Assembly: GCA_052386495.1 (NCBI GenBank)
Contig: JBQTKA010000008.1
Coordinates: 9,918-73,917, forward strand
Source: Hyphomicrobium sp.
GTDB taxonomy: Bacteria; Pseudomonadota; Alphaproteobacteria; Rhizobiales; Hyphomicrobiaceae
Direction: 5' to 3'
DNA length: 64,000 nucleotides
The notes below the pieces were generated by a model that made no database searches, was not told the origin of the DNA, and saw nothing but the letters and a program-made list of their open reading frames with translations. Positions 1-27,849 of this stretch are shown here, piece by piece (position 1 is the first letter of the stretch; the number at the start of each line of letters is the position of its first letter). Position numbers and translations under genes: made by a program.

Positions 1-35
1 TTGAACGGACGGTCGCAACGGGCATTTCGCAATCG

Positions 36-2501
36 GTGCTGTGCTGGCCGGCCCCCAACGCGTCGATCGCCGCCGGATTTGCTTTCGCGGTTCTGGCCAA
101 GTGGCAGGACTGCGGTCAAGACGGCAACAATCATCTCGCGGCGCCACCGCCACTTCGCGCCATCCACTTTCCCTGGTCGCGGCACGTCCGCCAGCCTCTG
201 GCGAACATGTACGTCTGCAAGAGCTACATCCATGCTCTTCACAAGCGCCACCTGCAGCGCTACGGCGAGGGCCGACAGGGCACGGATGGCCTCTATGATT
301 TGCACGTCTCGCTCATCCGCGTGAGCGACTTGAATGGATGGGTGACCGACGGAGAATGTCACCCCGAGTATCAGAATCCCACGTTGCAGGAGCTAATTCC
401 CGGCGGGTCGTGCGATGCCAACGATGCTGCCAACCGGACAGGATTGCTGCATCGGGTTCGCTCGAAGACGCTGCTCAAAAACTTGAGCAGCTCGCGCCAG
501 GCTGAGGATCCGAAGTCAGCCCCGTATTATCTCTATTCGGCCCGTGCGAACGACAGCCCTCGCGTCGCGCTGAGCCGCCTCCCGTCGAAACCGCATGTGC
601 TGCTTCTCGACCTTACCAAAGCGGGAAGGGGCCGCTTTGGCGATGACTGGAGGCTTCCGGTCAAGCAGATGCTGGCGGGGCTACGCACGTATCTGCCAGA
701 CGTACCGGTGCTCGCAGTCACCGATGACCCCTGGGTCCATCGCCAATTGATCTGGAAATTCCTGAAGGAGCACGACAAAGTCAAAGGCGATCGTCCGGCC
801 AAGGAGTCGGCTCTGTTCTTCCGCGATCGCAGCCTCACCTCGCCCGTCGACGCGGGCGTCACCTGCGCCGGCGCAAGTGAGATCAAGACCCGTTCGTTCT
901 CGGGCAAGCTCGATGCCATCCTCAAAACGTTAGGCGAGCTGAAGTCGCGCGCCGCGACGCTCGAAGACCTGGAAGCCGACAAGCAATTGGGCGAGCTCGC
1001 CTTGCTGCTGAAACGATGCGCCAACCTTCCCGGCGGGGTCTCCGACCTCGGAGACTATGTCGCCGCCGAGGCCGGCGATCTGCGGGCCACACACATCATG
1101 TCGGCCTATCAGGTGCCAAGCGTCATTGCGAACATCGACCGCTTGGAAGGCGCTCTCGCTCAATCCCGCAAAGGTCCTCTCGCGGAGCTTTGCCGGAATG
1201 CCCGCGAGGTTTGGAACAATCATTCCGTTACCAGCCCGATGTCCGTGCTGCTTGCGGATGTCCTCAGACAATACGTGCGCAACTCGTCCAAGACCGTAGT
1301 GATCTTCCGGAAACAGATGCTTTGCGACTACGCCGTAACGGCGCTCAGCAGCCATCCCGAAATCGGTGAGGCGGCGGCGAAGCGGATTGAAAACGGTATG
1401 TGGCGGTTCGTCGACGAGGTCGGTTGGCGTGAGACCACGAGCCTGCCCCCGTCCGAACGGCATCAGACCACGACCGTCATCCTCGTCTGCCCAACCCGAT
1501 TGCAACTCCTCGGACACATGACCGATCCTTGGCTGCCGCGCGATGTCGTTGTCCTCGCGGACGCGGCGACACTCGGAGCGATCGCGCGCGATGCGCATCA
1601 GCTCGCTCGATACCCCGCTTTCCGCACATTCGAGCAACGTCTAGGAAAACTTCGCGACAGCTGCGACACCGAAGTGGAAAAGGTCACTGGACACAAAGTG
1701 ATCCTCGACCGCGAAGCGGCCCCGCCGGCTGACGTGGAATTCCCGACGGCCCGCGTGATCGATCTTTCCGGGGGAGCGGCGCGAACCGGCCAGGATACCG
1801 TAATCAAGCTCGAAACCGACGATAGCCAGACCATCCTGGCCCGCCGGAAGACCAAACTCGTCTCTTTCGACGGCACAACCGCCGTGCCCACCTACAAGCC
1901 CTTGCTGGCGCACAACGCCGAGGTCAATGACGATATCTGCGTCATCAGCGACGATTTTGTCGATATGGCAAGGACCAAGCTGGACATCACTCACGTCGCC
2001 TCGGAGGAGATGCGCGACTACCACCAACTGGTAGCCGGACTCTACGCGCGCCGTGCCGGCACATCCGACCGCGAGAAACGCCGCGAACTTGCGGCAGAGA
2101 TCAATCGATTGCGGACGGCAACCGAGGCCGAGGTTTCCGAAGAAACTGTCCGCTATTGGGTTGACCTTGAGAAACAGCTGGCGATGCCGCTGGACGAGGT
2201 CACCCCGCATGCACCAAAGCAGTTCGAGACGTTTCTCAGGTTCATGCGCGCTTTGGGCGTGTCTCAGATCTTAGCCGAGCGCTACTGGCATTGGGCCGTA
2301 ATCCATACCCGGTCGCATAGGCTGAAAGCGGCGCACCAACTGCACGAAGCCTATCTCGGCGTGCTCATCTCGCCTCATGCCGCGGAAGCAGACAATCCCA
2401 AGCGCGTTGCCGACATCCGGGCGTTGAGGGCGTCCGCGCAGAGTTTTGTCTCGAGGATACGCGCCAAATCCCAGGTGGAAAGGGCAAGCCTATGCGCGTG
2501 A
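36..2501 (+). CDS. Hypothetical 821-aa protein; first gene of the DISARM-like defence operon (function unknown)
   Basis: Uninterrupted ORF co-directional with the helicase gene and overlapping it by 10 nt (ATG 2492, TGA 2499-2501). I found no Walker A, DEAD/DEAH, HKD, DPPY/NPPY or FxGxG motif in the translation. Start uncertain (GTG 36; ATG 207 also possible). Confidence 0.6.
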   Translation: MLCWPAPNASIAAGFAFAVLAKWQDCGQDGNNHLAAPPPLRAIHFPWSRHVRQPLANMYVCKSYIHALHKRHLQRYGEGRQGTDGLYDLHVSLIRVSDLNGWVTDGECHPEYQNPTLQELIPGGSCDANDAANRTGLLHRVRSKTLLKNLSSSRQAEDPKSAPYYLYSARANDSPRVALSRLPSKPHVLLLDLTKAGRGRFGDDWRLPVKQMLAGLRTYLPDVPVLAVTDDPWVHRQLIWKFLKEHDKVKGDRPAKESALFFRDRSLTSPVDAGVTCAGASEIKTRSFSGKLDAILKTLGELKSRAATLEDLEADKQLGELALLLKRCANLPGGVSDLGDYVAAEAGDLRATHIMSAYQVPSVIANIDRLEGALAQSRKGPLAELCRNAREVWNNHSVTSPMSVLLADVLRQYVRNSSKTVVIFRKQMLCDYAVTALSSHPEIGEAAAKRIENGMWRFVDEVGWRETTSLPPSERHQTTTVILVCPTRLQLLGHMTDPWLPRDVVVLADAATLGAIARDAHQLARYPAFRTFEQRLGKLRDSCDTEVEKVTGHKVILDREAAPPADVEFPTARVIDLSGGAARTGQDTVIKLETDDSQTILARRKTKLVSFDGTTAVPTYKPLLAHNAEVNDDICVISDDFVDMARTKLDITHVASEEMRDYHQLVAGLYARRAGTSDREKRRELAAEINRLRTATEAEVSEETVRYWVDLEKQLAMPLDEVTPHAPKQFETFLRFMRALGVSQILAERYWHWAVIHTRSHRLKAAHQLHEAYLGVLISPHAAEADNPKRVADIRALRASAQSFVSRIRAKSQVERASLCA

Positions 2502-5500
2502 TTAGCCCCAAATCGCTCGGCGCGGAGTTCCAAGAGCTCAAGGAGGCGGTTTGCGACGCCATCATCAACTTGACCACGGATCGCGTGAGCGGTCGCGGCG
2601 AGACCGGGGCGATTGTTTATGGCCGATCGCCAAAGCGCGCCTTTGTAGCCGGACTTCTCTTGCCACGTTTCGACGAGCGGAATGTGAACGATGAAACGTC
2701 GGATATCCGCATTTCCACGCTCGGCATCGATTTGCTTGTCGGCACGCGTTCTCCCGGACTGGCCGAGCTTCGTCCGCGCTTTGCAACCTACATCAGGGTC
2801 TTTCCGACATGGGCAGAGCTGCAGGATCGACGCTACGGTTTGGATGTCGACTTCGCGCTCGATCCCACCGTGGAACAGACCATCAAAGCCAACATCCGTG
2901 CTGAGCGTGCTCGCGACTTTGCGGCTGAAGACTTGAACCGCCGCGATCCCAAGGACATGCCTGCCGAAGAGAGGCGGCGACGCCAGTCGCGGCGAGCGGA
3001 AATCCGTCGAGAGGTCACACGCCAAGCCTATTCGCAATTCGGCATCGTCCTCAGCGAAGACGATGTCGAGGCCGCTACGATTTCCGGAGTGATCCCGCAA
3101 ACATCACCAAACGCCGCGACCGAAACCCGAGCGGAAGAGGCGGACGAGGGTGCCAATTCGGATACGACGATTCCGTCCGACTTGACTCCCGTCGTGGATA
3201 TCGCGCGGCTGCGCGCGCGGGGGCGTACGGTTCCCCATGGATTGTTGCGGGCCGCGGACATCCCCATCAAGTGGCAGCGGATCGATCTCGATCTTCCGCC
3301 GTTGACCTGGGATTTGGCACTCGGGAACTCTGACATCGTCGCGGACCTCGAAGCCTATAACGCGCGGCTCCGCGCGGCGGCGCTTGCGTCCGTCCAGGCC
3401 TGGCGATCCAGTCCGGAAGGTACACAAAACGCCCTTCGCGATGTGCAGGTCAATCCGGCTGACGTCGAGAACCAGGCGGCCTGGGAGCGATTCCTTGCTC
3501 GCGCCAGAGCGCAGCCTCCGAACTTGGCCTTCTTGATGCCAGCCTTCGACCGGGTGAGGCTCACCGTCGACAAGTTGACCGATTTTGCCGACCCGACGGT
3601 GTCGAGCCTTCGCGTCACCTTGGAAAACGACAACCCCGAATTCTCGAGCCGCCTGAGTAAGCGCCGCATGGACACGTTGTTCCAGGCGTCGCTCACTCTC
3701 TCTATACCTACGGCCGCCCATCGTCCGCTGCGCCTCGACAGGGTCGAGCCCTCGTACCGCTTTCGGCATCACATGGAATACCCCGGGATGGGTCTCAACT
3801 GTGGTGTCTCGTGTGTTCGTTCGGCTGACCGCACGGAACTTGCGTCCACGTGGGCGCCGCGTTTCGTGCAGCCGCGCATTGTGCCTCCGACGTTGTCTGG
3901 TATTCCCTGCTCGTTCGCTGAGCTTGCCGATGACTCTCGCGATTGTTCTACGCTGCAGGCACTTCCTGACGCCTATCGGCGTTGGATATCCGACCACGAA
4001 GCCTCCCTGCGCCGCGAGGTCAGGGAAGGCCTGAGCGCCCAGGACGCCGAGGCCGAGTCGCAACGGCTCGAGAAAGACCTCGCGGCCCAACGCAAGGAGG
4101 CCCGCTACATCGAACGGGGCGTTGAGTTGCTCGTCGCGGCTCAGAAGGCTGCCCGATTGGCGGAACGCGAGACGAAGGCGGACGTCCGCCAGCGATTGAT
4201 CAAGGAAGCTATCCCGTGGCGCGCCTGGGTGCTAACAAACCGCGCGTTCCTGCGCCGCGACAAGAATGATCCCAAGCGCGGCTGGCGTCTGTTCCAAATG
4301 GCTTTTGTGCTTGCCCACATCCCGACATTCGCGTCGCGGATGCCCGAGTACAAGACCTGGCACGACCAAGAACTCGACGAGACCTCGGCGAGCCTGCTGT
4401 ATTTCCCAACCGGCGGCGGCAAGTCCGAGGCGTTTTACGGGTCCTTGTTGTTCGCGATGTTACTCGACCGACTTCGCGGCAAGGATCGCGGCATCACCGC
4501 AATGATCCGGTATCCGCTGCGACTTCTAACGCTGCAACAAGCCCAACGCCTGTTGCGATTGCTGGTTCATGCCGAGCTGGTTCGCAAGCAAGACGCGATC
4601 GGCACATGGCCATTCGAAATCGGCTTTTGGGTCGGCAAGACCAACACGCCCAACCGTTATCGGGAAGTTTCAGCGAAGATTCCGGCCGACGACGATGCTG
4701 ACTATCCGAATGACGCCAACTTAGTGCCGGTGCCGAGCAGCGGCGACGAAGACCACCTGGAACTTGCAAGGACCTATGAGGAAAATCTTCTTGCCTATAA
4801 CAAAATACCCACGTGCCCGGTCTGCGGCGAAGCCACCGGGCTCAGGCGTGTCCTTTCGCAAGGCGATACCGCCAAGCGGCTGGCCATCTTCTGCTTCAAC
4901 GCGTCGTGCCACTGGAACACCGCGCATACGAGTCGAAGTCCTCTTCCTTTTATCCTGACCGATGACGCTGTCTATGAGCGCGCTCCCTCGGTGGTCCTCG
5001 GCACCGTCGACAAGATGGCGATGCTCGGCCAGAACACCGACACCATTTCCCATCTTCTCGGCATGTTCGGACTGTCCCGTTGGATCGGGCCTCGCGGCAA
5101 CTTGCTCTCGCCGCGCGACGACGACCGGCTCCGCCAGGGTCCGGCTGCGTCCGGCTACGCTGCGGCTTTCCCCGCCTACAAAAATGGCACCAAGGTTTTC
5201 CATGATCCGTTCCCGTCCTTGATCATCCAGGACGAGGCGCATCTCCTCGAAGAAAGCCTCGGCACCTTCAGCGGCCTTTTTGAGTCGCTTTTCGAGGAAG
5301 TCATGGCGCGCATCACGGCCATTGCCGGAAACGAGCTTGAAGTCGCGCGGGCTTGGCACAACGGCGCTTGGGCGGCTCATCGTACGCCGAAGATCATCGC
5401 GGCCACCGCCACGGTCTCAGATCCCGAACGGCAGCTCGAAGTCCTCTATCAACGTAAGCCACTTCGATTCCCTTGCCCCGGGCCAGACATCTATCATTCG

Positions 5501-6907
5501 TTCTTCGCCGAGCCGGCTCCCGTGCCGCCTACGAATGCCGACCGACTCGCACTCGCCCTTTCCTTATCGACCGCGGATGCGCCAGAGGCGACAGCGCCAT
5601 GGATGCGCCTCTACGTCTCGCTGATGACCAATGGCTCGACCCACACCATGACCGCGGTCTCGGTTCTGTCGGCATTCCACGTCATCATCACCGACATTTG
5701 GCGTCGGCTCAATGACCCGGCGCTTCTTGCGTCCGGGTTGGCGTTGCTGCGCGGCGCGATATCGCCGGGCCAGAGTGGCGATTGGCGGCGGCGCGCCTTC
5801 GATGCCGCGGTGGCCGCCGGCCAGCAGAACGTCGTGCTCGCCCTGGTCGATCTGCATCGCATTGGCTTGACCTACGTCACCAATAAGAAGGGCGGCGACC
5901 AAATCATGGACGCGCTGGACCTTCAGGTTCGGCGTGATCATCAGGCGGTCAGCCAGCCAATCGATGCGTTTGATTGTCGGTTGATTTCCGGCGGCATCGA
6001 CATGCGTACCATCCAGGAGGTGATGGGAGACGCTGAACGTGAGTTTTCGGCCGGATCGGTTTACCCGGACATCAACACGCAGATGCGCAACGTGGTTGCG
6101 ACGTCGGCCATCTCGCACGGCGTCGACGTCGACCGGTTCAACAGCATGTTATTTGCCGGACTTCCTTCCGACATCGCCGAGTACATCCAGGCTTCAAGCC
6201 GTGTTGGCCGCACCCATGTGGGCTTCGTCATGCTGATCCCCACGCCGCAGAGCCGGCGGGATCGCTACGTCGTCGAGACCCACGACATCTTCCATCGTTT
6301 CCTGGAGCGCATGATCGCGCCGCCAGCGGCGCAACGCTGGGCCGAAAACGCCCTCAAGCGTGTGACCGCCTCGGTCGTTCAGGCCTGGGCGATGCTCAGA
6401 GAAGCCGAGGACTTCAAGGCAAAGAAAGACGCCGAGAAGGAAAGGACGCGGTCCTATGATGTGATGCGGCGCTTGAACAGCATCGCGTCCGCAGACCGGC
6501 TAGCGATGCGAACCGAGCTTGCCGACTTCATGTTGCGCGGCGTCGGTTTCCCCGGCCGCGGAGCCGCCAAGATCGGCAGCCCGGTATCGGAAGAGGTCTA
6601 CCGCAACCTGGTCGACGCCGGGATGAAGGACCTGGTGAGCAATATCGCGAGCTTCAATTCGCTAATCCGTCTCGGAGAGTTCTGGCACCAGAACAGTGGC
6701 GTGCAGCCGCCGATGACATCGCTGCGCGACGTCGATGAAGCTGGAATCATCATTCCCAGCGGTTTTGACCCGAGGGGGTCTGGAGGCCGACGCTACATCA
6801 AGAAGGAATCTTTTGTCGGCGTGATGAAGGCCATCCGCTCGCAGCGCGGCTCTGGTGCCGAGACCGACCGCGATGGCGAACCCCCGGATGAAAATCAGGC
6901 CGCATGA
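2492..6907 (+). CDS. Large SF2 DEAH-box helicase, 1471 aa (DISARM DrmA-like)
   Basis: Motif I PTGGGKSE (nt 4406-4429), DEAH in IIQDEAHLLEE (nt 5231-5242), motif III-like AATATVS, motif VI QASSRVGRTHVG. About 630 N-terminal residues have no motif I recognise. A zinc-ribbon-like insert lies at nt 4814-4912. The stop overlaps the next start (ATGA, 6904-6907). Confidence 0.85.
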   Translation: MRVISPKSLGAEFQELKEAVCDAIINLTTDRVSGRGETGAIVYGRSPKRAFVAGLLLPRFDERNVNDETSDIRISTLGIDLLVGTRSPGLAELRPRFATYIRVFPTWAELQDRRYGLDVDFALDPTVEQTIKANIRAERARDFAAEDLNRRDPKDMPAEERRRRQSRRAEIRREVTRQAYSQFGIVLSEDDVEAATISGVIPQTSPNAATETRAEEADEGANSDTTIPSDLTPVVDIARLRARGRTVPHGLLRAADIPIKWQRIDLDLPPLTWDLALGNSDIVADLEAYNARLRAAALASVQAWRSSPEGTQNALRDVQVNPADVENQAAWERFLARARAQPPNLAFLMPAFDRVRLTVDKLTDFADPTVSSLRVTLENDNPEFSSRLSKRRMDTLFQASLTLSIPTAAHRPLRLDRVEPSYRFRHHMEYPGMGLNCGVSCVRSADRTELASTWAPRFVQPRIVPPTLSGIPCSFAELADDSRDCSTLQALPDAYRRWISDHEASLRREVREGLSAQDAEAESQRLEKDLAAQRKEARYIERGVELLVAAQKAARLAERETKADVRQRLIKEAIPWRAWVLTNRAFLRRDKNDPKRGWRLFQMAFVLAHIPTFASRMPEYKTWHDQELDETSASLLYFPTGGGKSEAFYGSLLFAMLLDRLRGKDRGITAMIRYPLRLLTLQQAQRLLRLLVHAELVRKQDAIGTWPFEIGFWVGKTNTPNRYREVSAKIPADDDADYPNDANLVPVPSSGDEDHLELARTYEENLLAYNKIPTCPVCGEATGLRRVLSQGDTAKRLAIFCFNASCHWNTAHTSRSPLPFILTDDAVYERAPSVVLGTVDKMAMLGQNTDTISHLLGMFGLSRWIGPRGNLLSPRDDDRLRQGPAASGYAAAFPAYKNGTKVFHDPFPSLIIQDEAHLLEESLGTFSGLFESLFEEVMARITAIAGNELEVARAWHNGAWAAHRTPKIIAATATVSDPERQLEVLYQRKPLRFPCPGPDIYHSFFAEPAPVPPTNADRLALALSLSTADAPEATAPWMRLYVSLMTNGSTHTMTAVSVLSAFHVIITDIWRRLNDPALLASGLALLRGAISPGQSGDWRRRAFDAAVAAGQQNVVLALVDLHRIGLTYVTNKKGGDQIMDALDLQVRRDHQAVSQPIDAFDCRLISGGIDMRTIQEVMGDAEREFSAGSVYPDINTQMRNVVATSAISHGVDVDRFNSMLFAGLPSDIAEYIQASSRVGRTHVGFVMLIPTPQSRRDRYVVETHDIFHRFLERMIAPPAAQRWAENALKRVTASVVQAWAMLREAEDFKAKKDAEKERTRSYDVMRRLNSIASADRLAMRTELADFMLRGVGFPGRGAAKIGSPVSEEVYRNLVDAGMKDLVSNIASFNSLIRLGEFWHQNSGVQPPMTSLRDVDEAGIIIPSGFDPRGSGGRRYIKKESFVGVMKAIRSQRGSGAETDRDGEPPDENQAA

Positions 6908-9141
6908 GCAGGGCACCAAAACCGCCAGCTACCCGAGCCGACTGGCGCACCGCGCGACCCATGCCGTCTCAACAGCAGCGTGGGCAGCCGAAAACTGAAG
7001 ATGCTCCAAGTATGTCGCGGTCGCGCGTTCAGCTCGCCACCGCCTATGCGCCCGACATCCTATTCACTTGGGAAGGCGCCAAAGGTATTTGCCGCGCGGT
7101 TCCGGTCGACCGGCCCGCCGACGTCAAGCCGGCGACGCGACTGATGATCTTCCAGGGTATCCAGGAAGCGGCCAAGAATTGGCTGGAGCGCGCCATTTCG
7201 GTCACCAATGATCCGAACACTTACCCGCTATCGCTCATCCTCGAAGATGCTCTAATCGACGAACGCACCCGCTCAGTGGCCATTGACGAGGCCAGGAACT
7301 TCAAGCTGACACGACCAGACCGCATTGGCTACGTTCCATTCCCGCTTCTGTTCCGCTGCGGCACCTGCGGGCGCCTGCGCGAATACGACAATGTCGAAGA
7401 CCAGGCGGCGAACCCGCTGCCGCGTAAGTGTTCCGGTCATACCGCCCGGTGGACGCAAGTCGACGTCGTTTATGTCCACTGGTCCGGCGGCCTCGAGCCG
7501 CTCAGTCCATTCCGCTATCAGCATGACGCCGCCACCAACGAGGTCAATCGCATTGAGAAATGCGAGTGCGGCTCGTCGGAGTTTCGCCTCGAGAACGAAG
7601 CGCCGGTATTCTCCGAATGGAAATTCATCTGTCTTGGCTGCGCGCAGCCGCGCGATCTCAAGCAGCCGGATGAGCGCGCGCTTCGGCAGCTCAAGCCGCG
7701 GATGGACCGCGGCCTCGATCACGAGTGGATCGAGATCAACATGCTGCCCGTCTCCTATCGGGCCAATTCCGCCTATTACGTGCAGAAGGGCTACTTCATC
7801 GACTTCGAGGACCGCCGTGTCGTCGACCTGATGATGCCGGACCGCCGCGAGGAGCTTTTGAGAGCGCTCGCGTCGCTGCACGGCTTCGCGTACGACGAAC
7901 CGCCCGAGGGCGACGTCAAGAGCGCGCTTCTGGCCGCCGGCAAACCAAATGAATACGCGGCATGGGAACTGCTCAGGGAAATGAGTGGCAAGTTCCGCAG
8001 TCTCAACGACACCATCAAGGCCGACGCCCTCGCGCGCGACGCGGAGCAACACCGCGAGTCGTGGTTTTCCGGGGGCCTGGTGGAACGCGGTGGCGTGCAG
8101 AGCCGGGCCCTTGTGTCAGCCGTTTCCGACAGGTCAAACTGGGCTCGCCGGTACGACCCGCTTCGCCTCACCATCGAGCACGACGTCTTCGTCCGCGAAC
8201 ACATCGCGCAACGCATGACGACGCGCGGCGCCGTCGACGTGCTGGAGCCGGACCGCTTGATCTGCGATGCCGTCGGAGATCCCACCAGGCTCGATGCTTA
8301 CCGCGCCACGACGCAGCAGCTGATGGATCGCATTGGCGTCGACCGCGCGGTGCTCATCCGCACATTGCCAATCTGGGAATACAGCTTTGGCTATTCGCGC
8401 ATCTCGTCAGGGCCCATCTATCCCCGTGAGCACGGCAATCGAACCGTGGACATGCCGGTGCGCCTCAACACGTTCCCGATCCTGCCGGAGTCCACGCACC
8501 ATCCTGTCTATGTCCTCGATCAGAAGAACGAGGCTCTTTATTTCCGGCTCAGCGAACCCCGGGTGCGCGCCTGGCTCGCCGCCAATCGCGTCACACCCGC
8601 ACCGTATACCGCTAAGCCGGGATTGGCCGGAACCTACCTGGAGCAATACCAGGACTTCACCCCGTATCTCGACCAGTTCAAAAGCAGAGTGGGTCGCGCC
8701 GGTGCCGCGCGGGAATTCTGCCCCTACGTCTACCTGCTGCTGCACAGTCTTTGCCACCAGGTCATCCACTCGCTGGCCGAGACCTCTGGTCTCGACCGTG
8801 ACGGGATTGGCGAGCACATCTTTCCGGCCGATCTCGCCTTTGTGGTCTATCGCAAAGGCATGACCCCCGATCTCGGCAACATCTCCGCGATGTGGCGCAA
8901 CCACAGCGAAGCGTTCCTAGCGCGGATTCTTGAGCCTCGGCTGTTGCGCTGCGGCTCGGGCAGCCTCTGCGACTCGCGGGGAGGGGCCTGTCCGGCGTGC
9001 ATCATGCTGCCCGACATCTCCTGCATCGCGAGCAACCAGCTACTGTCGCGCGCGGCGCTCAAGGGCGGGCCACCTCCGACCTGGGAAGATCGCTCGAACC
9101 CGCTGCTGGTCGGATATTTCGACCCAGCACTTCGGCCATGA
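6904..9141 (+). CDS. DUF1998 (MrfA-type Zn-binding) domain protein, 745 aa (DISARM DrmB-like)
   Basis: C-terminal LLHSLCHQVIHSL ... RCGSGSLCDSRGGACPACIMLPDISC cysteine cluster (nt 8950-9024) is typical of DUF1998. Extra CxxC pairs at nt 7357-7641. ATGA start/stop overlaps at both ends. Confidence 0.8.
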   Translation: MSRAPKPPATRADWRTARPMPSQQQRGQPKTEDAPSMSRSRVQLATAYAPDILFTWEGAKGICRAVPVDRPADVKPATRLMIFQGIQEAAKNWLERAISVTNDPNTYPLSLILEDALIDERTRSVAIDEARNFKLTRPDRIGYVPFPLLFRCGTCGRLREYDNVEDQAANPLPRKCSGHTARWTQVDVVYVHWSGGLEPLSPFRYQHDAATNEVNRIEKCECGSSEFRLENEAPVFSEWKFICLGCAQPRDLKQPDERALRQLKPRMDRGLDHEWIEINMLPVSYRANSAYYVQKGYFIDFEDRRVVDLMMPDRREELLRALASLHGFAYDEPPEGDVKSALLAAGKPNEYAAWELLREMSGKFRSLNDTIKADALARDAEQHRESWFSGGLVERGGVQSRALVSAVSDRSNWARRYDPLRLTIEHDVFVREHIAQRMTTRGAVDVLEPDRLICDAVGDPTRLDAYRATTQQLMDRIGVDRAVLIRTLPIWEYSFGYSRISSGPIYPREHGNRTVDMPVRLNTFPILPESTHHPVYVLDQKNEALYFRLSEPRVRAWLAANRVTPAPYTAKPGLAGTYLEQYQDFTPYLDQFKSRVGRAGAAREFCPYVYLLLHSLCHQVIHSLAETSGLDRDGIGEHIFPADLAFVVYRKGMTPDLGNISAMWRNHSEAFLARILEPRLLRCGSGSLCDSRGGACPACIMLPDISCIASNQLLSRAALKGGPPPTWEDRSNPLLVGYFDPALRP

Positions 9142-9719
9142 GCGTCGCCAAGCCGCCGATCTCTGCACCACCCGCCCGCGCGCGGTTTGTCGTCACCTTG
9201 CCGATGCGGCCGAACGTGCTTGAACCCGCTCTGCTTAAAGTCTGCCCAGAAGGGGCGTCGGCGCTCACGGCAACACAAGAGGCTTTCACGCATCTTGCGA
9301 GGCGCAGCAAACAACGGCTCGTTTTGATTACTCCCTTCATTGACCTGGCAGGCATCGAATGGGCGACCACGCTGTTCAAAGCGTCGCCGGCGCCGGAACG
9401 CATTCTCATCTTGCGCGAAACGCGCCGGCTCGATGACTTCGGCTCGGCCGCCGTCGAATTGAAGTCGCTTGTTACGGAGCTGCTCGAATACCGCGTGGTC
9501 CACGCATCCGGCGACAGAGCCCTACCTATCGAGACATTCCACGCCAAGATTGCCTTGGCGGACGGTTCGGCCGCCTATGTCGGTTCCGCCAATATGTTGC
9601 AGTCATCCCTGGAAGTCGCCCTCGAGTGCGGTTTTTTCATTGAAGGGCCGGCGGTCGCGCAGGTTTCGGATTTGGTGTCTGCGATCTTGCTCGTGACTCG
9701 ATCACCCATCGAAAGCTAG
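9138..9719 (+). CDS. Single-HKD phospholipase-D-family nuclease, 193 aa (DISARM DrmC-like)
   Basis: HAKIALADGSAAYVGSAN = HxK(x4)D(x6)GSxN (nt 9540-9593). ORF-track entry 8997-9719 is the same frame. ATG 9138 is preferred because it forms an ATGA overlap with the upstream stop. Confidence 0.85.
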   Translation: MSVAKPPISAPPARARFVVTLPMRPNVLEPALLKVCPEGASALTATQEAFTHLARRSKQRLVLITPFIDLAGIEWATTLFKASPAPERILILRETRRLDDFGSAAVELKSLVTELLEYRVVHASGDRALPIETFHAKIALADGSAAYVGSANMLQSSLEVALECGFFIEGPAVAQVSDLVSAILLVTRSPIES

Positions 9720-9903
9720 ACCGGCTCACCCGTTCGCGTTTCAGCGATTCGCATAATCGGGCTTATGTTCAACTAAACGAAGACCTAGTTGCCGATCAGC
9801 GTTCCGACTCCGACCGCCAGTAGCGAATCTACAATTCAATTCCGATCAACATGTCAGACTTACAGTGGCTCAACGCTCGTGGTCGCTGAACTTCAATCGC
9901 GTG

Positions 9904-11268
9904 CTAGTCTGCGGGTCGGGCTGTCGTCATCACGCTCGGCAACTCCAGGGTCGCCAATAGCCCGCCGAGTTCCGACGTCGCTAGCGTCGCATCGCCGCCG
10001 TAGAGCCTTGCGAGTTCTCGTACGATCGCGAGTCCTAGTCCGGACCCCGGCAACTGCGTGTCCCATCGCTCGCCAACCTTAAATACAACCTCGCGCGCCT
10101 CAGGCGGCAAGCCGATGCCATCATCTTCAATAAATATCAGGACCGCCGGTTCTTTGCTGCGTTTAGTGGATATCCGCACGCTGCGAGCGGCGTGTTTGCA
10201 GGCGTTGTCGACTAGGTTGGCCAGCATCTCATTGAGGTCCTGAGCATCGCAGGCAACTTGGAGATCATTTTCGACTGCATTCTCAATTGTGACGCCGCGA
10301 TCAATATGCAAACGCTGTAGTGCGCTTGTCACTTCGCTGGCAGCCTTGTTCACCGAAGCGACGGTCCCTGGCGTGGATCGCAAGGCGACGGCGCGGGCGC
10401 GCGCAAGCTGGTAGTCAATCTGCGTTTGCATTTTTTGGCATTCACCGAGGATCGTCTTAGAAGCATCGGATAGACCTCTGCCCTCAATCCGATAAGCTTC
10501 ATCCGTCAAGATCGCGAGGGGCGTCTTTAGGCCATGCGCGAGATTTCCGGCTTGCGTGCGCGCTCTCTGAATTAGTTCAGCTGTCGAGGACAGCAGTGTG
10601 TTGAGGTCATCGACCAACGGCTGAACCTCGGTTGGGAAGTGACTGGGAAGTCCTTTGCTGTCGCCCGACCGGACTGACGCCAGTGACGTGCGAAGTTGCT
10701 CAAACGGGCGCATCGCGAAGAGTATCAAAAGGGTCGCGGCCACCACCATAGAAACGCCGAACCCGGCAAGCGACCACGAAAGGGTTTGATTGAAACTTTT
10801 CAGGACTTCATCAAGGTGGCGCTCATCAGTGCCGATAATGTATTGAACCGGCGACGCTTCCTGAGGTTTAGCGAATGTCTTCTCAGCAACGAGGAGCGCG
10901 CCCGTCGGGCCTTCGATCGTATGAGTATGAACATCTGTGCCATCTGTTCCATCGGAAGGCATTTTGAGTGCCTGACCTTGCAGCGATGGTGATCGAGCAA
11001 GTATCGCTCCCGATTGTTGGATTTCCCAGTAGAAGCCAGACAATGCCACTTCGTATCGCGGATCGCTTAAATTGCGCTGCAGATGCGCGCCCTTGTCGTC
11101 CGTTTCCGTCAGACGTTGCAGCTCATCAAGATGCACATAGAGTTCATCCCAGAACTGCTCGGTGACGTGCTTCTTGAAGATGGCAGACAGCACGAAACCG
11201 GCGGCGATCATGCCAATAGCGATCCAGATCGTGGCAGCGCCAATCAGCCGGTTTTTGAGGCTACGCAT
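9904..11268 (-). CDS. Sensor histidine kinase (PhoQ/EnvZ-type; N-terminal TM, periplasmic domain, second TM, HAMP, HisKA, HATPase)
   Basis: H-box NLAHGLKTPLAIL, N-box LANLVDNACKHA, G-boxes EDDGIGLP and GSGLGLAIVRELARLYGG. Lies 11 nt downstream of the response-regulator gene. Confidence 0.9.
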   Translation of the reverse strand: MRSLKNRLIGAATIWIAIGMIAAGFVLSAIFKKHVTEQFWDELYVHLDELQRLTETDDKGAHLQRNLSDPRYEVALSGFYWEIQQSGAILARSPSLQGQALKMPSDGTDGTDVHTHTIEGPTGALLVAEKTFAKPQEASPVQYIIGTDERHLDEVLKSFNQTLSWSLAGFGVSMVVAATLLILFAMRPFEQLRTSLASVRSGDSKGLPSHFPTEVQPLVDDLNTLLSSTAELIQRARTQAGNLAHGLKTPLAILTDEAYRIEGRGLSDASKTILGECQKMQTQIDYQLARARAVALRSTPGTVASVNKAASEVTSALQRLHIDRGVTIENAVENDLQVACDAQDLNEMLANLVDNACKHAARSVRISTKRSKEPAVLIFIEDDGIGLPPEAREVVFKVGERWDTQLPGSGLGLAIVRELARLYGGDATLATSELGGLLATLELPSVMTTARPAD

Positions 11269-11279
11269 TCGCTGCTCCG

Positions 11280-11933
11280 CTATTCGATCCGGTATCCAAG
11301 ACCGCGAATGGTCTTGATGAAATCGGCGCCGAACTTTCGCCTAAGGCGGCTGACGTAAACCTCAATGGTGTTGGATTCTCTGCTCTCTTCGAGCGCATAG
11401 AGATGCTCAGTCAATTCCGCTTGCGACACGATGCGGCCAATCCGGTGCATGAAATAATTGAGCATGCGCATTTCTCGCGCCGTCAGCTCAATGGACTTGC
11501 CATCAAGGGTTACGCGTCCTGACCCGGTGTCGAGCGTCACATTGCGATGCGTGAGCTGTGGGCTTGCCAGTCCGGACGATCGGCGGATGAGCGCCTGCAA
11601 CCGTGCGGCCACTTCGGGAATATGGAAAGGCTTGGTAATGTAGTCGTCGGCGCCGGCGTTGAGGCCGTCGACTTTTTCCGACCAGCTTCCACGCGCGGTC
11701 AAAACGAGTACGGGCACCATGCGCGCCTCCGCACGCCAGCGCTTCAGCACATCAATTCCCTGCATCTGAGGGAGGCCAAGATCGAGAATGGCTGCGTCAT
11801 AGGTGTCATCGATACCCATCGCATAGCCATCGGCGCCATTATCTGCCCGGTCCACAGTGAAGCCAGCCGGGGTAAGCCCCGACACAAGCCGCTCTGCGAT
11901 GTCGTCGTCGTCTTCGACCAGAAGAATACGAAT
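11280..11933 (-). CDS. OmpR/PhoB-family response regulator with probable ATT start codon
   Basis: Receiver domain (IRILLVEDDDD ... AAILDLGLP ... DDYITKPF) plus winged-helix C-terminus (IEVYVSRLRRKFG ... IRGLGYRI). The ORF track starts at GTG 11885, which would delete strand beta-1 and the acidic pocket. The frame is open to a TAA 7 codons upstream of ATT 11933 with no ATG/GTG/TTG in between. AGGAGG sits 5 nt upstream of the ATT. Confidence 0.85.
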   Translation of the reverse strand: MRILLVEDDDDIAERLVSGLTPAGFTVDRADNGADGYAMGIDDTYDAAILDLGLPQMQGIDVLKRWRAEARMVPVLVLTARGSWSEKVDGLNAGADDYITKPFHIPEVAARLQALIRRSSGLASPQLTHRNVTLDTGSGRVTLDGKSIELTAREMRMLNYFMHRIGRIVSQAELTEHLYALEESRESNTIEVYVSRLRRKFGADFIKTIRGLGYRIE

Positions 11934-12097: not shown

Positions 12098-13153
12098 ATG
12101 CACTCGACCAGCCACGTGAGCCGATTGGTTTTGCCCTTGGCGCTGATTGCCAGCACGGCCGCTCAGGCGAAAGACCTTGCCGTCTCGCCTGCGCAAGTGG
12201 AGCGTTTGGAGATTAAGGTTGAAGATGTCAGGCGCGCTGAGACTGAAGCCGTGGCCTTGCTGCCCGGCACCGTAACACCAGCGATGAACGCGCGAATCAT
12301 AGCAGCGGCGCCCTTCGCGGGAACGCTTGTTCAGCTGCATGCGCTTCCAGGTCAGAAGATTTCAAAGGGTGCGCCGCTCGCGACTATTTCAAGCCGCGAA
12401 TTGCTCGAAGCCATGAGCCAACTCGCGCAGTCGGAAGCGGAACTGCAGATGGCAGAGGCCGTGGCGCGACGCAAGCGCACGCTGGTCGATAAAAACTTCC
12501 AAGCGCCTGCCGTTGCCGAAGAAGCGGAGGCGCAAGTCGCAAAGATCAAGGCCGTCATCGACCAGAACAAACGGACGGCATCGCTCGGTGGCATAACGGT
12601 CGGACAGGGCGGCCAATACACGCTGCCGGCACCGGCCGATGGCACGATCGTCGAAGCGCGCGCGATGCTCGGGGACAAGCTCGATGCGATGGCGCCGGTC
12701 GTTGCCGTCGATGCGAGCCCGGAGCTATCGATCGAGGTTCAGGTCCCTGCCGATTTGGTCACGCAAATTCATGCAGGCGATAAGGTTCAAGTCATCGATG
12801 GGCCTGAAGGAACAGTCATTGCGGTCGGCGGGTCACTCGATCGCATGACCCGATCCGCCATGCTCCTTGCATCTGTGCCTTCTAGCTCCGGTTTGATGCC
12901 GGGGCAGATGGTGACGCTGAGTATTCAGCGGCCCGCCGTAGCGAACGCGATTGCCGTGCCAGCAACATCTGTGGCGCGTATCGATGGCCGCGACAGCGTT
13001 TTTGTTCGCACCGATGACGGTTTCAAACTAGTCCCCATAGTCCTTCGGGGGCGGTCACCCTTGGGCGCAACCGTCTCAGGAGATATCGCCCCGAACGCCA
13101 AAGTCGCCGCAAGCAGCCTTCCGCAACTCGAACAGATGCTGGCGGGGGAGTAG
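12098..13153 (+). CDS. RND efflux periplasmic adaptor (CzcB/CusB/HlyD family)
   Basis: Signal-like N-terminus, coiled-coil hairpin region (ELLEAMSQLAQSEAELQMAEAVARRKRTLVDK), beta-barrel C-terminal part. AGGAG precedes the ATG. The stop is 3 nt before the RND pump gene. Confidence 0.9.
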   Translation: MHSTSHVSRLVLPLALIASTAAQAKDLAVSPAQVERLEIKVEDVRRAETEAVALLPGTVTPAMNARIIAAAPFAGTLVQLHALPGQKISKGAPLATISSRELLEAMSQLAQSEAELQMAEAVARRKRTLVDKNFQAPAVAEEAEAQVAKIKAVIDQNKRTASLGGITVGQGGQYTLPAPADGTIVEARAMLGDKLDAMAPVVAVDASPELSIEVQVPADLVTQIHAGDKVQVIDGPEGTVIAVGGSLDRMTRSAMLLASVPSSSGLMPGQMVTLSIQRPAVANAIAVPATSVARIDGRDSVFVRTDDGFKLVPIVLRGRSPLGATVSGDIAPNAKVAASSLPQLEQMLAGE

Positions 13154-13156
13154 GCC

Positions 13157-16100
13157 ATGCTGCGCCGCCTGATCGAATTTTCACTGACGCAGCGCGCCTT
13201 CATGCTGCTTATGTCAGTGCTGGTCGCTGGCCTCGGGGGCTACGCTTTCAAGACCATTGCGATCGACGCATTTCCGAATATCTCGCCCGTCCAGGTGAAG
13301 ATGATTCTCAAGGCGCCCGGCATGACGCCGGAGGAAGTTGAAACGCGCGTCATCACGCCGATCGAGATGGAGCTTCTCGGAATTCCGCGCCAGACGATTC
13401 TCCGCTCAGCCGCCAAGTATGCTGTCGCCGACATCACGCTCGATTTCGAAGATGGCACAGACATCTACTGGGCCCGCCAACAGGTTGCCGAACGCCTTGC
13501 AGGCGTGCGCGGCGACCTCCCAGCGAGCGTCACAGGCGGCCTTGCGCCTGTATCGACGCCGCTCTCGGACGTGTTCATGTTCACGATCGAAGGCGGCAAG
13601 CTGTCGCTCGAAGAGCGCCGCAGTCTTCTTGATTGGACCATTCGACCGGCGCTCAGAACCATTCCCGGCGTCGCCGATGTCAACGCACTTGGCGGCATGG
13701 TGCGAACCTTCGAAGTCACACCGAACAATGCAGCGTTGGCGGCTGCGGGGCTTGGTGTTTCGGATCTTCTTAAGTCGATTGAAGACGGTAACCGCAACGA
13801 TGGCGCCGGCCGATTGAGCGAAGGGGAAAAAGCGCTCGTTGTGCGCGCTGAAGGCGCCATTCGGACGCCGCAAGATTTGGAGCAGATCGTCCTAAAAATG
13901 GAGGGCAGTCGTGTCCTTCGGCTCCGGGACGTTGCCAGTGTGCGCATCGGCAGTCTGACGCGCTATGGCGCGGTGACGAAGGATGGCGCCGGAGAAGCGG
14001 TTCAAGGTCTCGTGCTGTCGATGCGTGGCGCCGACGCCAGCGCGATTGTCAAGTCCGTGCGCGCGCGGCTCGATGAATTGAAGCCGTCGCTGCCTGAAGG
14101 TGTGACGCTCGAAGTCTTCTACGACCGGTCGGATCTGATTCAGCGTGCTGTGGGTACAGTCACTAAGGCGCTGACGGAAGCGACCGTCCTGGTCATCATT
14201 TTATTGCTGGCCTTCCTCGGCAACTTGCGCGCCGCGCTCGTCGTAGCCGTAACCTTGCCGTTCGCAGCCCTCGTGACGTTCGTCATGATGCAGATGTTCG
14301 GCATGACTGCGAACTTGATGAGCCTCGGCGGCCTAGCGATCGCCATCGGCCTCATCGTAGATGCCGCGGTCGTCGTTGTGGAGAACACGGTCGAGCGGCT
14401 TCAGCACGAGGGCGATGATAACCGGGTTCCGATGCTGCACCGGATCTATCAGTCCGCGAGCGAAGTCGCGATGCCAGTCGCCTCCGGCATCCTGATTATC
14501 TGCCTCGTGTTCCTGCCGTTGCTGTCTCTACAGGGACTTGAAGGAAAGCTTTTCAGCCCGGTGGCGCTGACGATCATCTTTGCGCTCAGCGCCTCGCTGA
14601 TTATTTCACTGACGCTGATTCCTGTTCTGTCGTCTTTTCTGCTCAAGTCCGGGCATCACGCTGAGCCGTTGCTGATGCGGCTGCTGACGCGCGGCTATCG
14701 CCCATTTCTGAAGGGTTGCCTCCGCTTCCCGCTTCCGGTCTATGCACTTGCCGCGGCCAGCATCGGCCTCGTCGTGGTCGCCTATGGCGCGATCGGCAAG
14801 TCGTTCATGCCAACCATGGACGAGGGGTCGGTGATCATGCAGATCACCAAGCTGCCCTCGATCAGCTTGAAAGCTAGCATCGACGGCGACCTCCTCATCC
14901 AGAAAACACTCAAAGAGAAAGTCCCCGAAGTCGAACGCATCGTCGCACGCGTAGGGTCCGACGAGCTTGGCCTCGATCCGATGGGCCCTAACGAGACCGA
15001 TACCTTTCTCGTTCTGAAGCCCAAGGATCAATGGCGCGTCCCGGACAAAGCCTGGCTCGTCGAACAGCTACGCGAAGCGATGTCCGACCTTCCAGGCGTT
15101 GAGTTCGCGTTCACTCAGCCGATCGAAATGAGAACGGCGGAGATGCTGACCGGCGCCCGTGGCGATCTCGCCATCAAGGTCTTCGGTCCAGATCTCAAGA
15201 CCCTTTCTGAATTGTCAGGGCAGATTCAATCGGTATTGAGCAAGGTGCCTGGCGCTTCAGAAGTCTCGACCGTCGCTAACGACAGCGTTGACTACCTGCA
15301 GATCAACGTCGATCGGCTTTCAAGCGGCCGCACAGGTCTCTCTGTCAGCGTGCTTCAAGACCAGCTGCGCTCGGTGATCGAAGGAGCGCCTGCGGGATTG
15401 GTCTCCGAGCCAGGCCGCCGCACAAATGTTGTCGTGCGCGGCTCGGAGTCGGTACGTGAATCGCCTGAGTTGTTTTCGCAAACCCAGCTGGCGGCCGGCG
15501 ATGGCGGGCTGGTTCGGGTCGGCGATATTGCGAAACTTGAGCGCGTCGCCGGTCCGGTCAAGATCGACCGCGAGAACGCGTCACGCTTCGCAATCATTCA
15601 GGCCTATGTGACGGGTCGCGATCTCGTCGGCTTTGTCGAAGACGCGCAAAAGGCCGTCGCTGAAAAGGTCCCTCTGCCGCAAGGCTATCGCTTAGTCTGG
15701 GGCGGACAGTTCGAAAACCAGCGGCGTGCAGCAACACGTCTAGCGATCGTCGTTCCAATTGCTCTCGGACTGATCTTCGGCGTTCTGTTCGCCACGCTGC
15801 GCTCGATGCGCCAAGCCTTGTTAATTTTGGCGAACGTGCCGTTCGCACTGGTCGGTGGTGTCCTCGCACTGTGGCTGACCGGTGAATATCTCTCGGTTCC
15901 CGCGTCTGTGGGCTTCATCGCGCTGCTCGGCATCGCAGTGCTCAACGGCCTCGTTCTCGTAAGTCATTTCAATGAGTTGATCGCAGGCGGATCGAGCGTT
16001 GCCGACGCGGTTTTTGAAGGCTCCGTTCGCCGGCTTCGCCCGGTGATGATGACGGCAAGCATCGCTGCGTTCGGGTTGGTGCCGCTGCTGTTCGCCAATG

Positions 16101-22413: not shown

Positions 22414-22553
22414 TATCCAACTCAGGGGTTGGGGATCGCGTACAGCATATTAGAGTCTGTCAGCCATATTCACGCATCTGCGGAGCGCCGACGGTCACCA
22501 GCGTTCAATTGACGGCATGATCGAGGCTGGCAACAATGCCGAGATCGACCCGA

Positions 22554-23351: not shown

Positions 23352-23403
23352 CGGCGCTGCTACTGCCTCACAAGCACGACGAGGACGTTGAAATGGCGCA
23401 AGC

Positions 23404-27700: not shown

Positions 27701-27837
27701 GTTGGCCGGTTGAGATCTGGAAACACGTCGACCGGGAGTGCGCGCAGCGTCATCAGTCCGTAAATCATGATGGCGATGCCGCCAATCAGAACGAACAGGC
27801 GGTTGGCAAGGCTGGCGCGGACGATGGCATTGAACAT
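24721..27837 (-). CDS. Heavy-metal RND efflux pump, CzcA/CusA family (1038 aa), second copy
   Basis: [20 protein letters not shown]...[14 protein letters not shown]-terminus, [21 protein letters not shown] motif, 12-TM layout. Confidence 0.95.
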
Positions 27838-27849
27838 CTGCGCGCCTGC

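Follow-up and report, generated by a model that had tools for sequence, protein, structure and literature searches.

We find that bases 1-9719 of the window (by which we mean the whole 64,000-nucleotide stretch of Hyphomicrobium sp. DNA that was analysed) probably hold the final four of five genes in a translationally coupled, restriction-modification-like defence operon of the DISARM type, and we are similarly confident of the gene order N6-adenine methylase (just left of the window)-g1-DrmA-DrmB-DrmC. Judged from sequence comparison, the locus is a methylase-containing DISARM variant, marked by g1, a conserved helicase-like protein that appears to be ATPase-dead. All five operon genes are encoded on the source contig.

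The four same-strand ORFs of a preliminary description of this DNA were present, as were their stop/start overlaps of 10, 4 and 4 nt and a convergent histidine kinase gene 184 nt past the PLD gene (Table 1). The 10-nt and 4-nt overlaps were also found in orthologous loci, and the operon arrangement is therefore not due to chance. No methylase gene follows DrmC ahead of the kinase gene, and neither a terminator-like hairpin nor a promoter consensus was found in the spacer after DrmC.

Table 1. Features of the operon and its right flank, in nucleotide positions of the window.
Feature	Position	Strand	Remark
g1 (gene 1)	1..2501 (preliminary ORF 36-2501)	+	5' end cut off by window edge
g1, P-loop position expected for an SF2 helicase	51..71	+	after strand SVLCWP; reads APNASIA, no GK[ST]
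g1, motif-II-like position	609..617	+	D-L-T after hydrophobic strand (VLLLDLT)
g1/DrmA overlap, 10 nt	2492..2501	+	ATG 2492, TGA 2499-2501
DrmA-like SF2 DEAH helicase, 1471 aa	2492..6907	+	PADLOC, NCBIfam, PDB match, motifs
DrmA Walker A, TGGGKS	4409..4426	+	residues 640-645
DrmA DEAH	5231..5242	+	residues 914-917
DrmA/DrmB overlap	6904..6907	+	ATGA
DrmB-like protein, 745 aa	6904..9141	+	PADLOC, NCBIfam, orthologue profile
DrmB Cys cluster, C-terminal DUF1998/MZB-type	8950..9024	+	C683/C689/C696/C699/C707
DrmB/DrmC overlap	9138..9141	+	ATGA
DrmC-like single-HKD PLD nuclease, short form, 193 aa	9138..9719	+	Pfam, PADLOC, NCBIfam, motif
DrmC HxKx4D	9540..9563	+	residues 135-142, then GSANM; single HKD
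Intergenic spacer, 184 nt, operon end	9720..9903	.	faces convergent histidine kinase gene
Convergent histidine kinase gene	9904-11268		184 nt downstream of DrmC gene
Response regulator of histidine kinase	11280-11885		

Profile and motif matches identify genes 2-4 as homologues, remote but specific, of DrmA, DrmB and DrmC. The window DrmA matches PADLOC DrmA with E 9.1e-96 and NCBIfam DISARM_DrmAS with 398.6 bits (short of the equivalog cut-off of 950), and its sole PDB match is Serratia DrmA (7s9v_A, 3e-46). It exceeds the three canonical DrmA used for comparison by approximately 300-400 aa, and its Walker A and DEAH motifs recur without exception in variant and canonical DrmA alike. Remote homology of the third product to DrmB is supported by PADLOC DrmB (E 6.6e-11, residues 475-722) and NCBIfam DrmB_fam (E 1.6e-8, 33.8 bits against a cut-off of 240), with the curated thresholds missed, and by a profile of seven DrmB orthologues, which found only Serratia DrmB in the PDB (7s9v_B, E 1.4e-6), with the Cys cluster aligned; the N-terminus carries CxxC pairs. 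DrmC exceeds the 27-bit cut-off of Pfam PLDc_2 (35.8 bits, E 8.4e-9) and also matches PADLOC DrmC (E 1.8e-9) and NCBIfam DISARM_DrmC_I (E 2e-10, 41 bits, below the cut-off of 133). The DEAH helicase, DUF1998-type Cys cluster and single-HKD PLD motifs described earlier could thus each be located, and the PADLOC, NCBIfam and PDB matches together with the gene overlaps bear out the proposed DrmA/DrmB/DrmC core in one translationally coupled operon. HMM searches upheld the PLD assignment, whereas the Pfam DUF1998 model (PF09369) gave no match to the window DrmB at E<=1 and the DrmB-specific models matched remotely.

The preliminary description had reported no methyltransferase in view, which is true of the operon inside the window, but by accession order a methylase is encoded directly before g1 on the same contig. 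MGQ0456258.1, a 566-aa HsdM/Eco57I-type N6-adenine methylase, lies outside the window on the same 79,558-bp contig of the Hyphomicrobium sp. MAG as g1, and its accession immediately precedes that of g1 (MGQ0456259.1, locus tag ACT4OU_04265). It has the domains PF02384 and PF07669 with intact SAM-binding and NPPY motifs. In the closest relative (L012) the methylase gene and g1 overlap by 4 nt; identity between the two methylases is 62%, and between the two g1 proteins 63%. Consecutive accessions and synteny together indicate that the methylase gene sits just left of base 1, in agreement with an alternative raised earlier, namely that a methylase lay beyond the left edge. The best PADLOC match of MGQ0456258.1 is the type II model PDLC03338 (E 2.2e-93), and its 25 best matches include no DrmMI model; a true DrmMI from Deinococcus (1484 aa), used as a control, scores E=0 on the DrmMI models. 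In its methylase the cassette is not class-2-like, the enzyme being of the N6-adenine HsdM/Eco57I type and not a C5 DrmMII.

A look at the neighbourhoods of g1 homologues, as the preliminary description had proposed, gave the same picture. In 16 of the 16 distinct related loci that reach far enough on both sides, with g1 identity down to 16-20%, the same methylase accompanies g1-DrmA-DrmB; two of these loci have lost DrmC or retain it in decayed form. The methylase lies upstream in 13 (L001/L002, L003, L004/L005, L006, L007, L008, L011, L012, L019-L023, L024) and downstream in 3 (L009, L015, L018), and the order is g1-DrmA-DrmB-DrmC-methylase in L009 and L015 (R. johnstonii pRL10). None of the related cassettes has a C5 methylase, and BrxHII, PglX and queuosine-pathway genes are absent from the related loci. 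The five genes stay together even in very divergent relatives, where plasmids or integrative islands usually carry them, and among their neighbours are integrases, IS66, resolvases, AbiE, a Cap4-like nuclease, HipA, VapBC and type I R-M. In Sinorhizobium americanum an IS66 element sits within DrmB, and L007 has a partial DrmC. Cultured strains of Rhizobium, Polaromonas and Afipia carry the variant on plasmids, among them Rhizobium johnstonii 3841 pRL10, Polaromonas naphthalenivorans CJ2 and Afipia carboxidovorans OM5; none of these is annotated as DISARM, and their genes are currently called merely 'helicase-related' or 'hypothetical'.

The size of 821 aa given earlier for the first gene product is wrong. 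From base 3 onwards the g1 frame is open, no stop being found upstream, and in an alignment with homologues of 892-945 aa the window sequence begins at homologue residue ~86. By this alignment the window edge cuts off ~85 N-terminal residues and leaves the C-terminal ~832 of ~918; homologues span 860-960 aa. Both the GTG at 36 chosen in the preliminary description and the GTG at 342 chosen in GenBank are internal codons of g1. The g1 family is unannotated and comprises 331 clusters at 50% identity. Searches of g1 against Pfam, PADLOC and NCBIfam models gave no match, DrmD and DrmE models included, none of 54 diverse relatives matched any PADLOC or NCBIfam model, and the g1 profile returned only noise from the PDB sequences. 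The earlier description of the first gene as unrecognisable thus holds as far as DrmD and DrmE are concerned. Scans of genome contigs and of metagenome contigs with the g1 alignment returned one locus each, which should not be taken as a sign of rarity, since the scans could use no more than two short peptide patterns. Exact-sequence look-ups with the window DrmA and with the GenBank g1 protein gave no recorded entry.

Structure prediction points to a helicase fold. An AF2 model of the 63%-identical g1 orthologue, built from an 81-sequence alignment, reached a pLDDT of 92.4 and a pTM of 0.86, and replaced an earlier, poor model from 14 sequences (pLDDT 61.6). The PDB matches listed by Foldseek for this model with E <= 0.001 are all SF2 helicases or complexes containing one. 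With the RIG-I/Dicer/FANCM-Hef helicases (Foldseek probability 1.0, E 7e-7 to 1e-4) the g1 model shares two RecA-like lobes and an inserted helical domain, but g1 differs from them in having neither sequence similarity nor ATPase motifs, and in an extra C-terminal beta-barrel and helical domain, where the most conserved residues of the family are found (YH, W, PxAP, F, W, RxxR). A comparison of g1 with the DrmA helicase core by hhalign gave 0.2%, and the SF2 assignment is therefore based on fold only. Column counts over 81 family members showed no conservation of G-K-T/S at the P-loop position. At the motif-II position D-L-T is read, so the catalytic Glu is absent; the D is found in 69/81 members, followed by L or A and then T, and L202/D203/L204 are invariant in the homologue alignment. 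Walker A and DExH-like patterns occur together in 0/81 members, while the control found Walker A in 12/12 DrmA. In terms of the model, g1 is apparently an SF2-helicase-like protein without ATPase motifs that forms a conserved family.

DISARM class 1 is DrmD-DrmMI-DrmA-DrmB-DrmC (Serratia sp. SCBI, structures 7S9V/7S9W), and class 2 is outlined in 10.1101/2021.12.28.474362 as DrmE-DrmA-DrmB-DrmC-DrmMII of Bacillus paralicheniformis (Ofir et al., 2018). With no DrmD or DrmE match, no MmeI-like DrmMI and no C5 methylase, the locus fits neither. The preliminary description would have taken it for a standard DISARM locus had a methylase stood upstream and gene 1 scored as DrmE or DrmD; the methylase is there, but g1 scores as neither, which leaves a locus that has a methylase and yet is not a standard one of class 1 or class 2. 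We tentatively suggest that it may represent a third, undescribed DISARM class, in which a compact HsdM/Eco57I-type m6A methylase is combined with an ATPase-dead SF2 pseudo-helicase, g1, that would replace DrmD/DrmE as the self/non-self licensing subunit, e.g. by clamping duplex DNA and reading methylation for DrmAB. Our literature search found neither a third DISARM class nor a description of the variant. Bell et al. (2025, 10.1101/2025.09.15.676423) mention 'many uncharacterized DISARM-like classes' without describing this one, and the available part of their supplementary tables does not list the pRL10 proteins. The ARMADA types I/II of the same study resemble our locus in that defence is built on a YprA-family helicase, to which an accessory SF2 protein and a methylase acting on adenine are added; in ARMADA, however, the YprA helicase is unsplit and fused to a Vsr nuclease, and it is joined by an active BrxHII-like helicase and a methylase of the PglX-like kind, in contrast to the split DrmA/DrmB and separate PLD nuclease found here. 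The hallmark of ARMADA, Druantia and Dpd is likewise absent: an unsplit YprA to which DUF1998 is fused, accompanied by either a fused nuclease or 7-deazaguanine genes.

A rather unlikely alternative is that g1 is a very diverged DrmE, and the locus a class-2 DISARM whose C5 DrmMII has given way to an N6 methylase. Both systems have the helicase and the DUF1998 protein as two genes followed by the PLD nuclease, one operon methylase, and a large protein with no assigned role directly 5' of drmA, the slot of drmE that g1 occupies; in L009 and L015 the gene order is identical to that of class 2. In addition, the models cover DrmE-position proteins poorly, as an 801-aa Lactiplantibacillus protein between a C5 methylase and DrmA, in a genuine class-2-type locus, is itself without a PADLOC/NCBIfam match. 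(A Bacillus cereus plasmid locus, considered as a class 2 candidate, turned out to be class-1-like.) The operon methylase is N6-adenine (PF02384 + PF07669), in contrast to the C5 enzyme (PF00145) of class 2, and the silence of all models on the 54 diverse g1 members (0/54) extends to the class-2 DrmE-position family: hhalign of g1 against the Lactobacillus DrmE-slot family, a stand-in for the reference B. paralicheniformis DrmE, gave a probability of 0.6%, and the g1 HMM did not match the 801-aa protein. A sequence relation of g1 to the DrmE models or to this DrmE-position family is thus not detectable.

We consider it improbable that g1 is instead a decayed SNF2 helicase, i.e., an inactivated DrmD, in a locus derived from class-1 DISARM with a shortened methylase. 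Class 1 shares adenine methylation with the variant, its Serratia DrmA and DrmB are the sole solved structures that were matched, and the order methylase-g1-DrmA-DrmB-DrmC of most loci, with a methylase and an SF2-fold protein before DrmA, resembles the placing of DrmD and DrmMI. The SNF2 remodellers Chd1, PBAF/SMARCA, Fun30 and SMARCAD1 are also among the Foldseek matches of g1, but the best matches are RIG-I/Dicer/FANCM-type and not SNF2. The cassette has no SNF2 gene and, unlike class 1, no active SNF2 helicase (PF00176), g1 being without Walker A and DExH; no sequence signal links g1 to DrmD models, and its HMM is silent on real DrmD as well. The ~566-aa stand-alone methylase, with its best match to a type II model, differs from the ~1300-1500-aa MmeI/PglX-like DrmMI (PF13659).

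Slightly less credible again is that the 5' end of g1 is damaged in this MAG and that this copy is no longer functional. The GenBank protein (719 aa) starts at window position 342 despite a frame open to base 3, which could reflect a 5' lesion in the MAG rather than a mis-called start, and related copies do decay, as seen for DrmB in S. americanum and DrmC in L007. Yet window residues 1-113 align with conserved family positions (SxxVLCWP, FPW) with no stop or frameshift, and the four in-window genes are intact, with the catalytic motifs of DrmA (ATPase) and DrmC (HKD) present. Lastly, a methylase-independent DISARM variant, the second alternative of the preliminary description, would agree with the lack of a methylase in or beside the operon within the window and with the dispensability of class 1 methylases for defence, where their loss is not toxic (10.1101/2021.12.28.474362), but is contradicted by MGQ0456258.1 and by the methylase in all 16 related loci of sufficient extent, and has hardly any likelihood left.

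Self/non-self discrimination by DISARM and the roles of the accessory DrmD and DrmE are considered open (PMC9142583). Going by earlier DISARM studies (Bravo et al., 2022, PMC9142583; Aparicio-Maldonado et al., 2021, preprint), m6A placed by the methylase at its own recognition motif would mark host DNA, DrmA and DrmB would assemble into a helicase complex, driven by ATP, for loading onto foreign DNA that is incoming or replicating, and the PLD nuclease would contribute to degradation. By our own reasoning, g1 would take the slot of DrmD (class 1) or DrmE (class 2) and act as a nucleotide-independent, DNA-clamping sensor or adaptor, which would couple methylation status, or the methylase itself, to DrmAB licensing. 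The role proposed for g1, suggested by predicted fold, gene position and coupling, is the weakest step of this scheme.

As g1 matches no PADLOC (2023) model, such loci are probably not reported as class 1 or class 2 DISARM. In the variant, the conserved DrmABC core comes with an m6A methylase that is small and conventional and with a single accessory protein, which would have kept the helicase fold and lost the ATPase. It would thus be a simpler system, in which the accessory role may be separable from motor activity, and it is carried on plasmids of cultivable, genetically tractable bacteria.

The operon at the left end of the window had been described as a DISARM-like cassette with no methyltransferase in view; the apparent lack is an artefact of the window edge. 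The homologues retrieved with the product of its first gene (g1) were metagenomic, apart from GenBank MGQ0456259.1 (locus tag ACT4OU_04265), which is 100% identical to it and belongs to a 79,558-bp contig of a Hyphomicrobium sp. MAG. The closest relative, L012, has a g1 of 63% identity whose start is overlapped by 4 nt by the gene of a 568-aa N6_Mtase/Eco57I methylase. A search with this methylase found Hyphomicrobium sp. METHYLTRANSFERASE MGQ0456258.1 (566 aa, 62% identity), annotated as 'HsdM family class I SAM-dependent methyltransferase'. This protein is encoded on the same 79,558-bp contig, its accession number directly precedes that of g1, and its coding sequence is absent throughout the window. 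Neighbouring accession numbers, a common contig and synteny place the operon's methylase directly to the left of window base 1; a methylase beyond the left edge was part of one of two alternatives in the preliminary description. The enzyme carries the motifs DPAAGG and NPPY. PDLC03338, a model for type II methylases, is its best PADLOC match (E 2e-93), and PglX, MAD2 and type I models match weakly; DrmMI models are not among its best 25 PADLOC matches, while a control, the 1484-aa DrmMI of a canonical Deinococcus class-1 locus, gave E=0 on them.

The four forward-strand ORFs and the convergent gene that follows them were recovered as described, and the junctions could be read directly: g1 and gene 2 overlap by 10 nt (ATG at 2492, TGA at 2499-2501), and ATGA overlaps join genes 2 and 3 (6904-6907) and genes 3 and 4 (9138-9141). 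The length of 821 aa previously given for g1 did not hold. Its frame is stop-free from base 3 to the GTG at 36, and translation from base 3 aligns only from about residue 86 of homologues of 892-945 aa, so g1 is evidently cut by the window edge, and from sequence a complete protein of about 918 aa is expected. The GenBank protein has 719 aa and starts at a GTG at window position 342; residues encoded by window 3-341 match conserved family positions in the alignment, and the true start is probably some 600 nt upstream of the deposited one, unless there is a lesion left of the window. Within window 1-11500, G+C is 60-64% in the operon and 55-57% in the adjoining two-component genes (9.5-11.5 kb).

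Features of the operon and of the putative island that may carry it (window coordinates)
Feature	Position	Strand	Remarks
g1 ORF	36-2501	+	coordinates of the preliminary description; frame open from base 3
Gene 2 (DrmA-like)	2492-6907	+	ORF call
Gene 3 (DrmB-like)	6904-9141	+	ORF call
Gene 4 (DrmC-like)	9138-9719	+	ORF call
Histidine kinase	9904-11268	convergent to operon	HATPase_c; next gene after gene 4
Response regulator	11280-11885		partner of histidine kinase; RND efflux pair then follows
Mrr_cat-like restriction endonuclease	30858-31796	+	
N6_N4 DNA methylase	32821-34266	-	
rve-family transposase	35748-36569	-	
DDE transposase	36882-37937	+	
Large serine recombinase	39358-41055	+	
tRNA-Gln	41262-41335	-	directly beside the five preceding genes; all within 30858-41335

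Genes 2-4 had been read as a DrmABC core. Gene 2 is recognised by DrmA models (PADLOC E 9.1e-96), scores 398.6 bits on NCBIfam DISARM_DrmAS, far under the 950-bit equivalog cut-off, and has Serratia DrmA (7s9v_A, 3e-46) as its sole match among solved structures; Walker A (TGGGKS, 640-645), DEAH (914-917) and motif VI show no variation when aligned with canonical DrmA of the class-1 and class-2 types. Residues 475-722 of gene 3 are matched by DrmB models (PADLOC E 6.6e-11; NCBIfam E 1.6e-8, 34 bits against a 240-bit cut-off), and a profile of seven orthologues found only Serratia DrmB in the PDB (7s9v_B, E 1.4e-6), with the Cys cluster inside the alignment. The Pfam DUF1998/MZB model did not match gene 3 even at E<=1; a C-terminal fragment of the Sinorhizobium orthologue carries the RefSeq label DUF1998. 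The sequence supports remote homology of gene 3 to DrmB. The product of gene 4 is a PLD protein with one HKD motif (Pfam PLDc_2 above cut-off), reads HAKIALAD...GSANM there, and matches DrmC models (PADLOC E 1.8e-9). These model matches, structure matches and motifs uphold the predicted DrmABC core, which forms a divergent lineage. In its N-terminal half (residues 152-246, nt ~7357-7641), DrmB has two conserved cysteine pairs-of-pairs, C152/C155...C176 and C220/C222...C243/C246; Serratia DrmB matches this region weakly at 'PFPxxxRCxxCG', which hints at an additional zinc ribbon outside all models. DrmC is short (191-197 aa) in the window and in close relatives of its operon, and long (283-290 aa) in more distant cassettes (L004 19756-20607, L009 18978-19829, L022 13433-14281, L024 12351-13223). 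The four-helix bundle described at the N-terminus of DISARM nucleases (Bell et al. 2025) may be present in the long form, and would then be absent from the window's copy.

The same association recurs elsewhere. In all 16 related loci extending far enough on both sides (near-duplicate contigs counted once), a methylase is found together with g1, which supports a DISARM-like cassette and speaks against the methylase-less reading. Methylase-g1-DrmA-DrmB-DrmC is the order in L001/L002, L003 (Enhydrobacter aerosaccus ATCC 27094), L004/L005, L006, L007, L012 and L024; in L008 and L011, short contigs ending inside drmA, the methylase lies directly upstream of g1. The five-gene order recurs on plasmids from Mesorhizobium sp. 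AR07, Sphingomonas parapaucimobilis, Polaromonas naphthalenivorans CJ2 and Afipia carboxidovorans OM5, and on plasmid A of Sinorhizobium americanum, where DrmB is broken by IS66 (L021 11304-17096) and no DrmC was found at the locus. The methylase comes last in L009, L018 (on the opposite strand) and Rhizobium johnstonii 3841 pRL10. The association persists down to 16-20% g1 identity (P0066, P0144), and the 10-nt g1/DrmA overlap reappears in close relatives. RefSeq gives the DISARM name to none of these loci's cassette genes. Neighbours include integrases, IS66, resolvases, AbiE, a Cap4-like nuclease, HipA, VapBC and type I R-M, a mobile defence-island context. The DrmC region of L007 (19403-19819) gives a partial match only, without a called gene; this copy and that of L021 are in decay. 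An S8-family peptidase gene adjoins the cassette on two unrelated plasmids, pRL10 (L015 2817-3404 and 1-2738) and Afipia pOC167 (L023 15545-17603); on pRL10 it lies beside an ATP-binding protein gene, with a second PLD-family gene nearby, and the set may be another co-travelling defence module.

The preliminary description recognised no motif in g1, and Pfam, PADLOC and NCBIfam give no match to it. An exhaustive profile search yielded 331 clusters (50% identity, E<=1e-3), 114 of them at E<=1e-30, with full-length members of 860-960 aa; 54 diverse members matched no PADLOC model (DrmD and DrmE included) and no relevant NCBIfam model. The first AF2 model of g1 was poor, and an 81-sequence model of a 63%-identical orthologue (P0002) reached pLDDT 92.4 and pTM 0.86. 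All Foldseek matches listed for it at E<=0.001 are SF2 helicases or SF2-containing complexes, headed by Dicer-2, RIG-I, MDA5/LGP2 and FANCM, then Chd1, PBAF and SMARCAD1 (E 7e-7 to 1e-3, mostly probability 1.0; TM-scores are low, as multi-domain proteins would give). The modelled layout is an N-terminal helix, a RecA-like lobe, a helical insertion (~389-509), a second RecA-like lobe (~517-650), a small beta-barrel (~672-732) and a C-terminal helical domain holding most near-invariant residues (Y759-H760, W806, P822-x-A824, F834, W849, R857, R860). Where the P-loop strand-loop-helix is expected the family reads 'VLxWP' and then varies, and at the motif II position hhhhD-[LA]-T. Walker A and a DExH-like pattern occur together in none of 81 members (Walker A in 12/12 DrmA as control). 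From the SF2 matches and this absence we conclude that g1 is a predicted SF2-fold protein that has lost ATPase chemistry, with motif positions placed from topology.

The main rival reading, that g1 is homologous to DrmE, appears unlikely. In the class-2-type locus of Lactiplantibacillus plantarum pMK02, a C5 methylase gene is followed, in order, by genes for a hypothetical protein of 801 aa, for DrmA (DrmAS score 861 bits) and for DrmB (427 bits, exceeding its cut-off), and the protein in the DrmE position (L016 4784-7189; eight homologues, lactobacilli only) also escapes PADLOC and NCBIfam, so a missing HMM match is a weak test of DrmE identity. Profile-profile comparison of the two families gave a probability of 0.6%, and the g1 HMM found no match in the pMK02 protein or in a genuine DrmD. 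Several families, either unrelated or evolving very fast, seem to occupy the 'DrmE' slot.

Bases 1 to ~41,200 may be one integrated island with the DISARM-like operon as cargo. Beyond the tRNA-Gln lie housekeeping genes (Ppx, FtsJ, guaB, rsmB, guaA, RNase E). The putative island also holds two RND efflux systems (HlyD-type adaptor and AcrB-type pump; 12098-16321 and 24721-29733), two NicO-like transporters (21673-23426), an EptA-like phosphoethanolamine transferase (19192-20865), a VIT-family protein and cytochrome b561, which looks like metal or envelope-stress cargo.

The locus resembles the DISARM core at the level of remote homology only. It lacks the class 1 markers, SNF2 DrmD and MmeI-like DrmMI, and its methylase has N6_Mtase/Eco57I-type features, not those of the C5 enzyme that marks class 2; in its methylase the cassette is not class-2-like as had been suggested. 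A standard DISARM locus, pictured as an upstream C5 or N6 methylase with a first gene scoring as DrmE or DrmD, is thus half present: the N6 methylase is there, but g1 matches neither model. Nor is the locus ARMADA, Druantia or Dpd, to which the unsplit YprA helicase belongs. A literature search found no description of this variant; 'many uncharacterized DISARM-like ... classes' are stated to exist in the DISARM-like clade (Bell et al. 2025). In characterised DISARM, DrmAB depends on ATP, stays auto-inhibited until suitable ends of foreign DNA are encountered, and is more active with unmethylated sites (PMC9142583; 10.1101/2021.12.28.474362). By analogy, the methylase would mark host DNA, DrmAB would be a complex with the same ATP dependence, auto-inhibition and enhancement by unmethylated sites, and DrmC would be an accessory nuclease. 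We hold the explanation as a whole, a five-gene DISARM-like operon whose methylase lies just left of the window, to be quite likely, its weakest part being the role proposed for g1: given its motorless helicase-like clamp fold, tight translational coupling to both neighbours and strict co-inheritance, g1 may be a nucleotide-independent DNA-binding sensor or adaptor that would connect DrmAB with methylation status or with the methylase.
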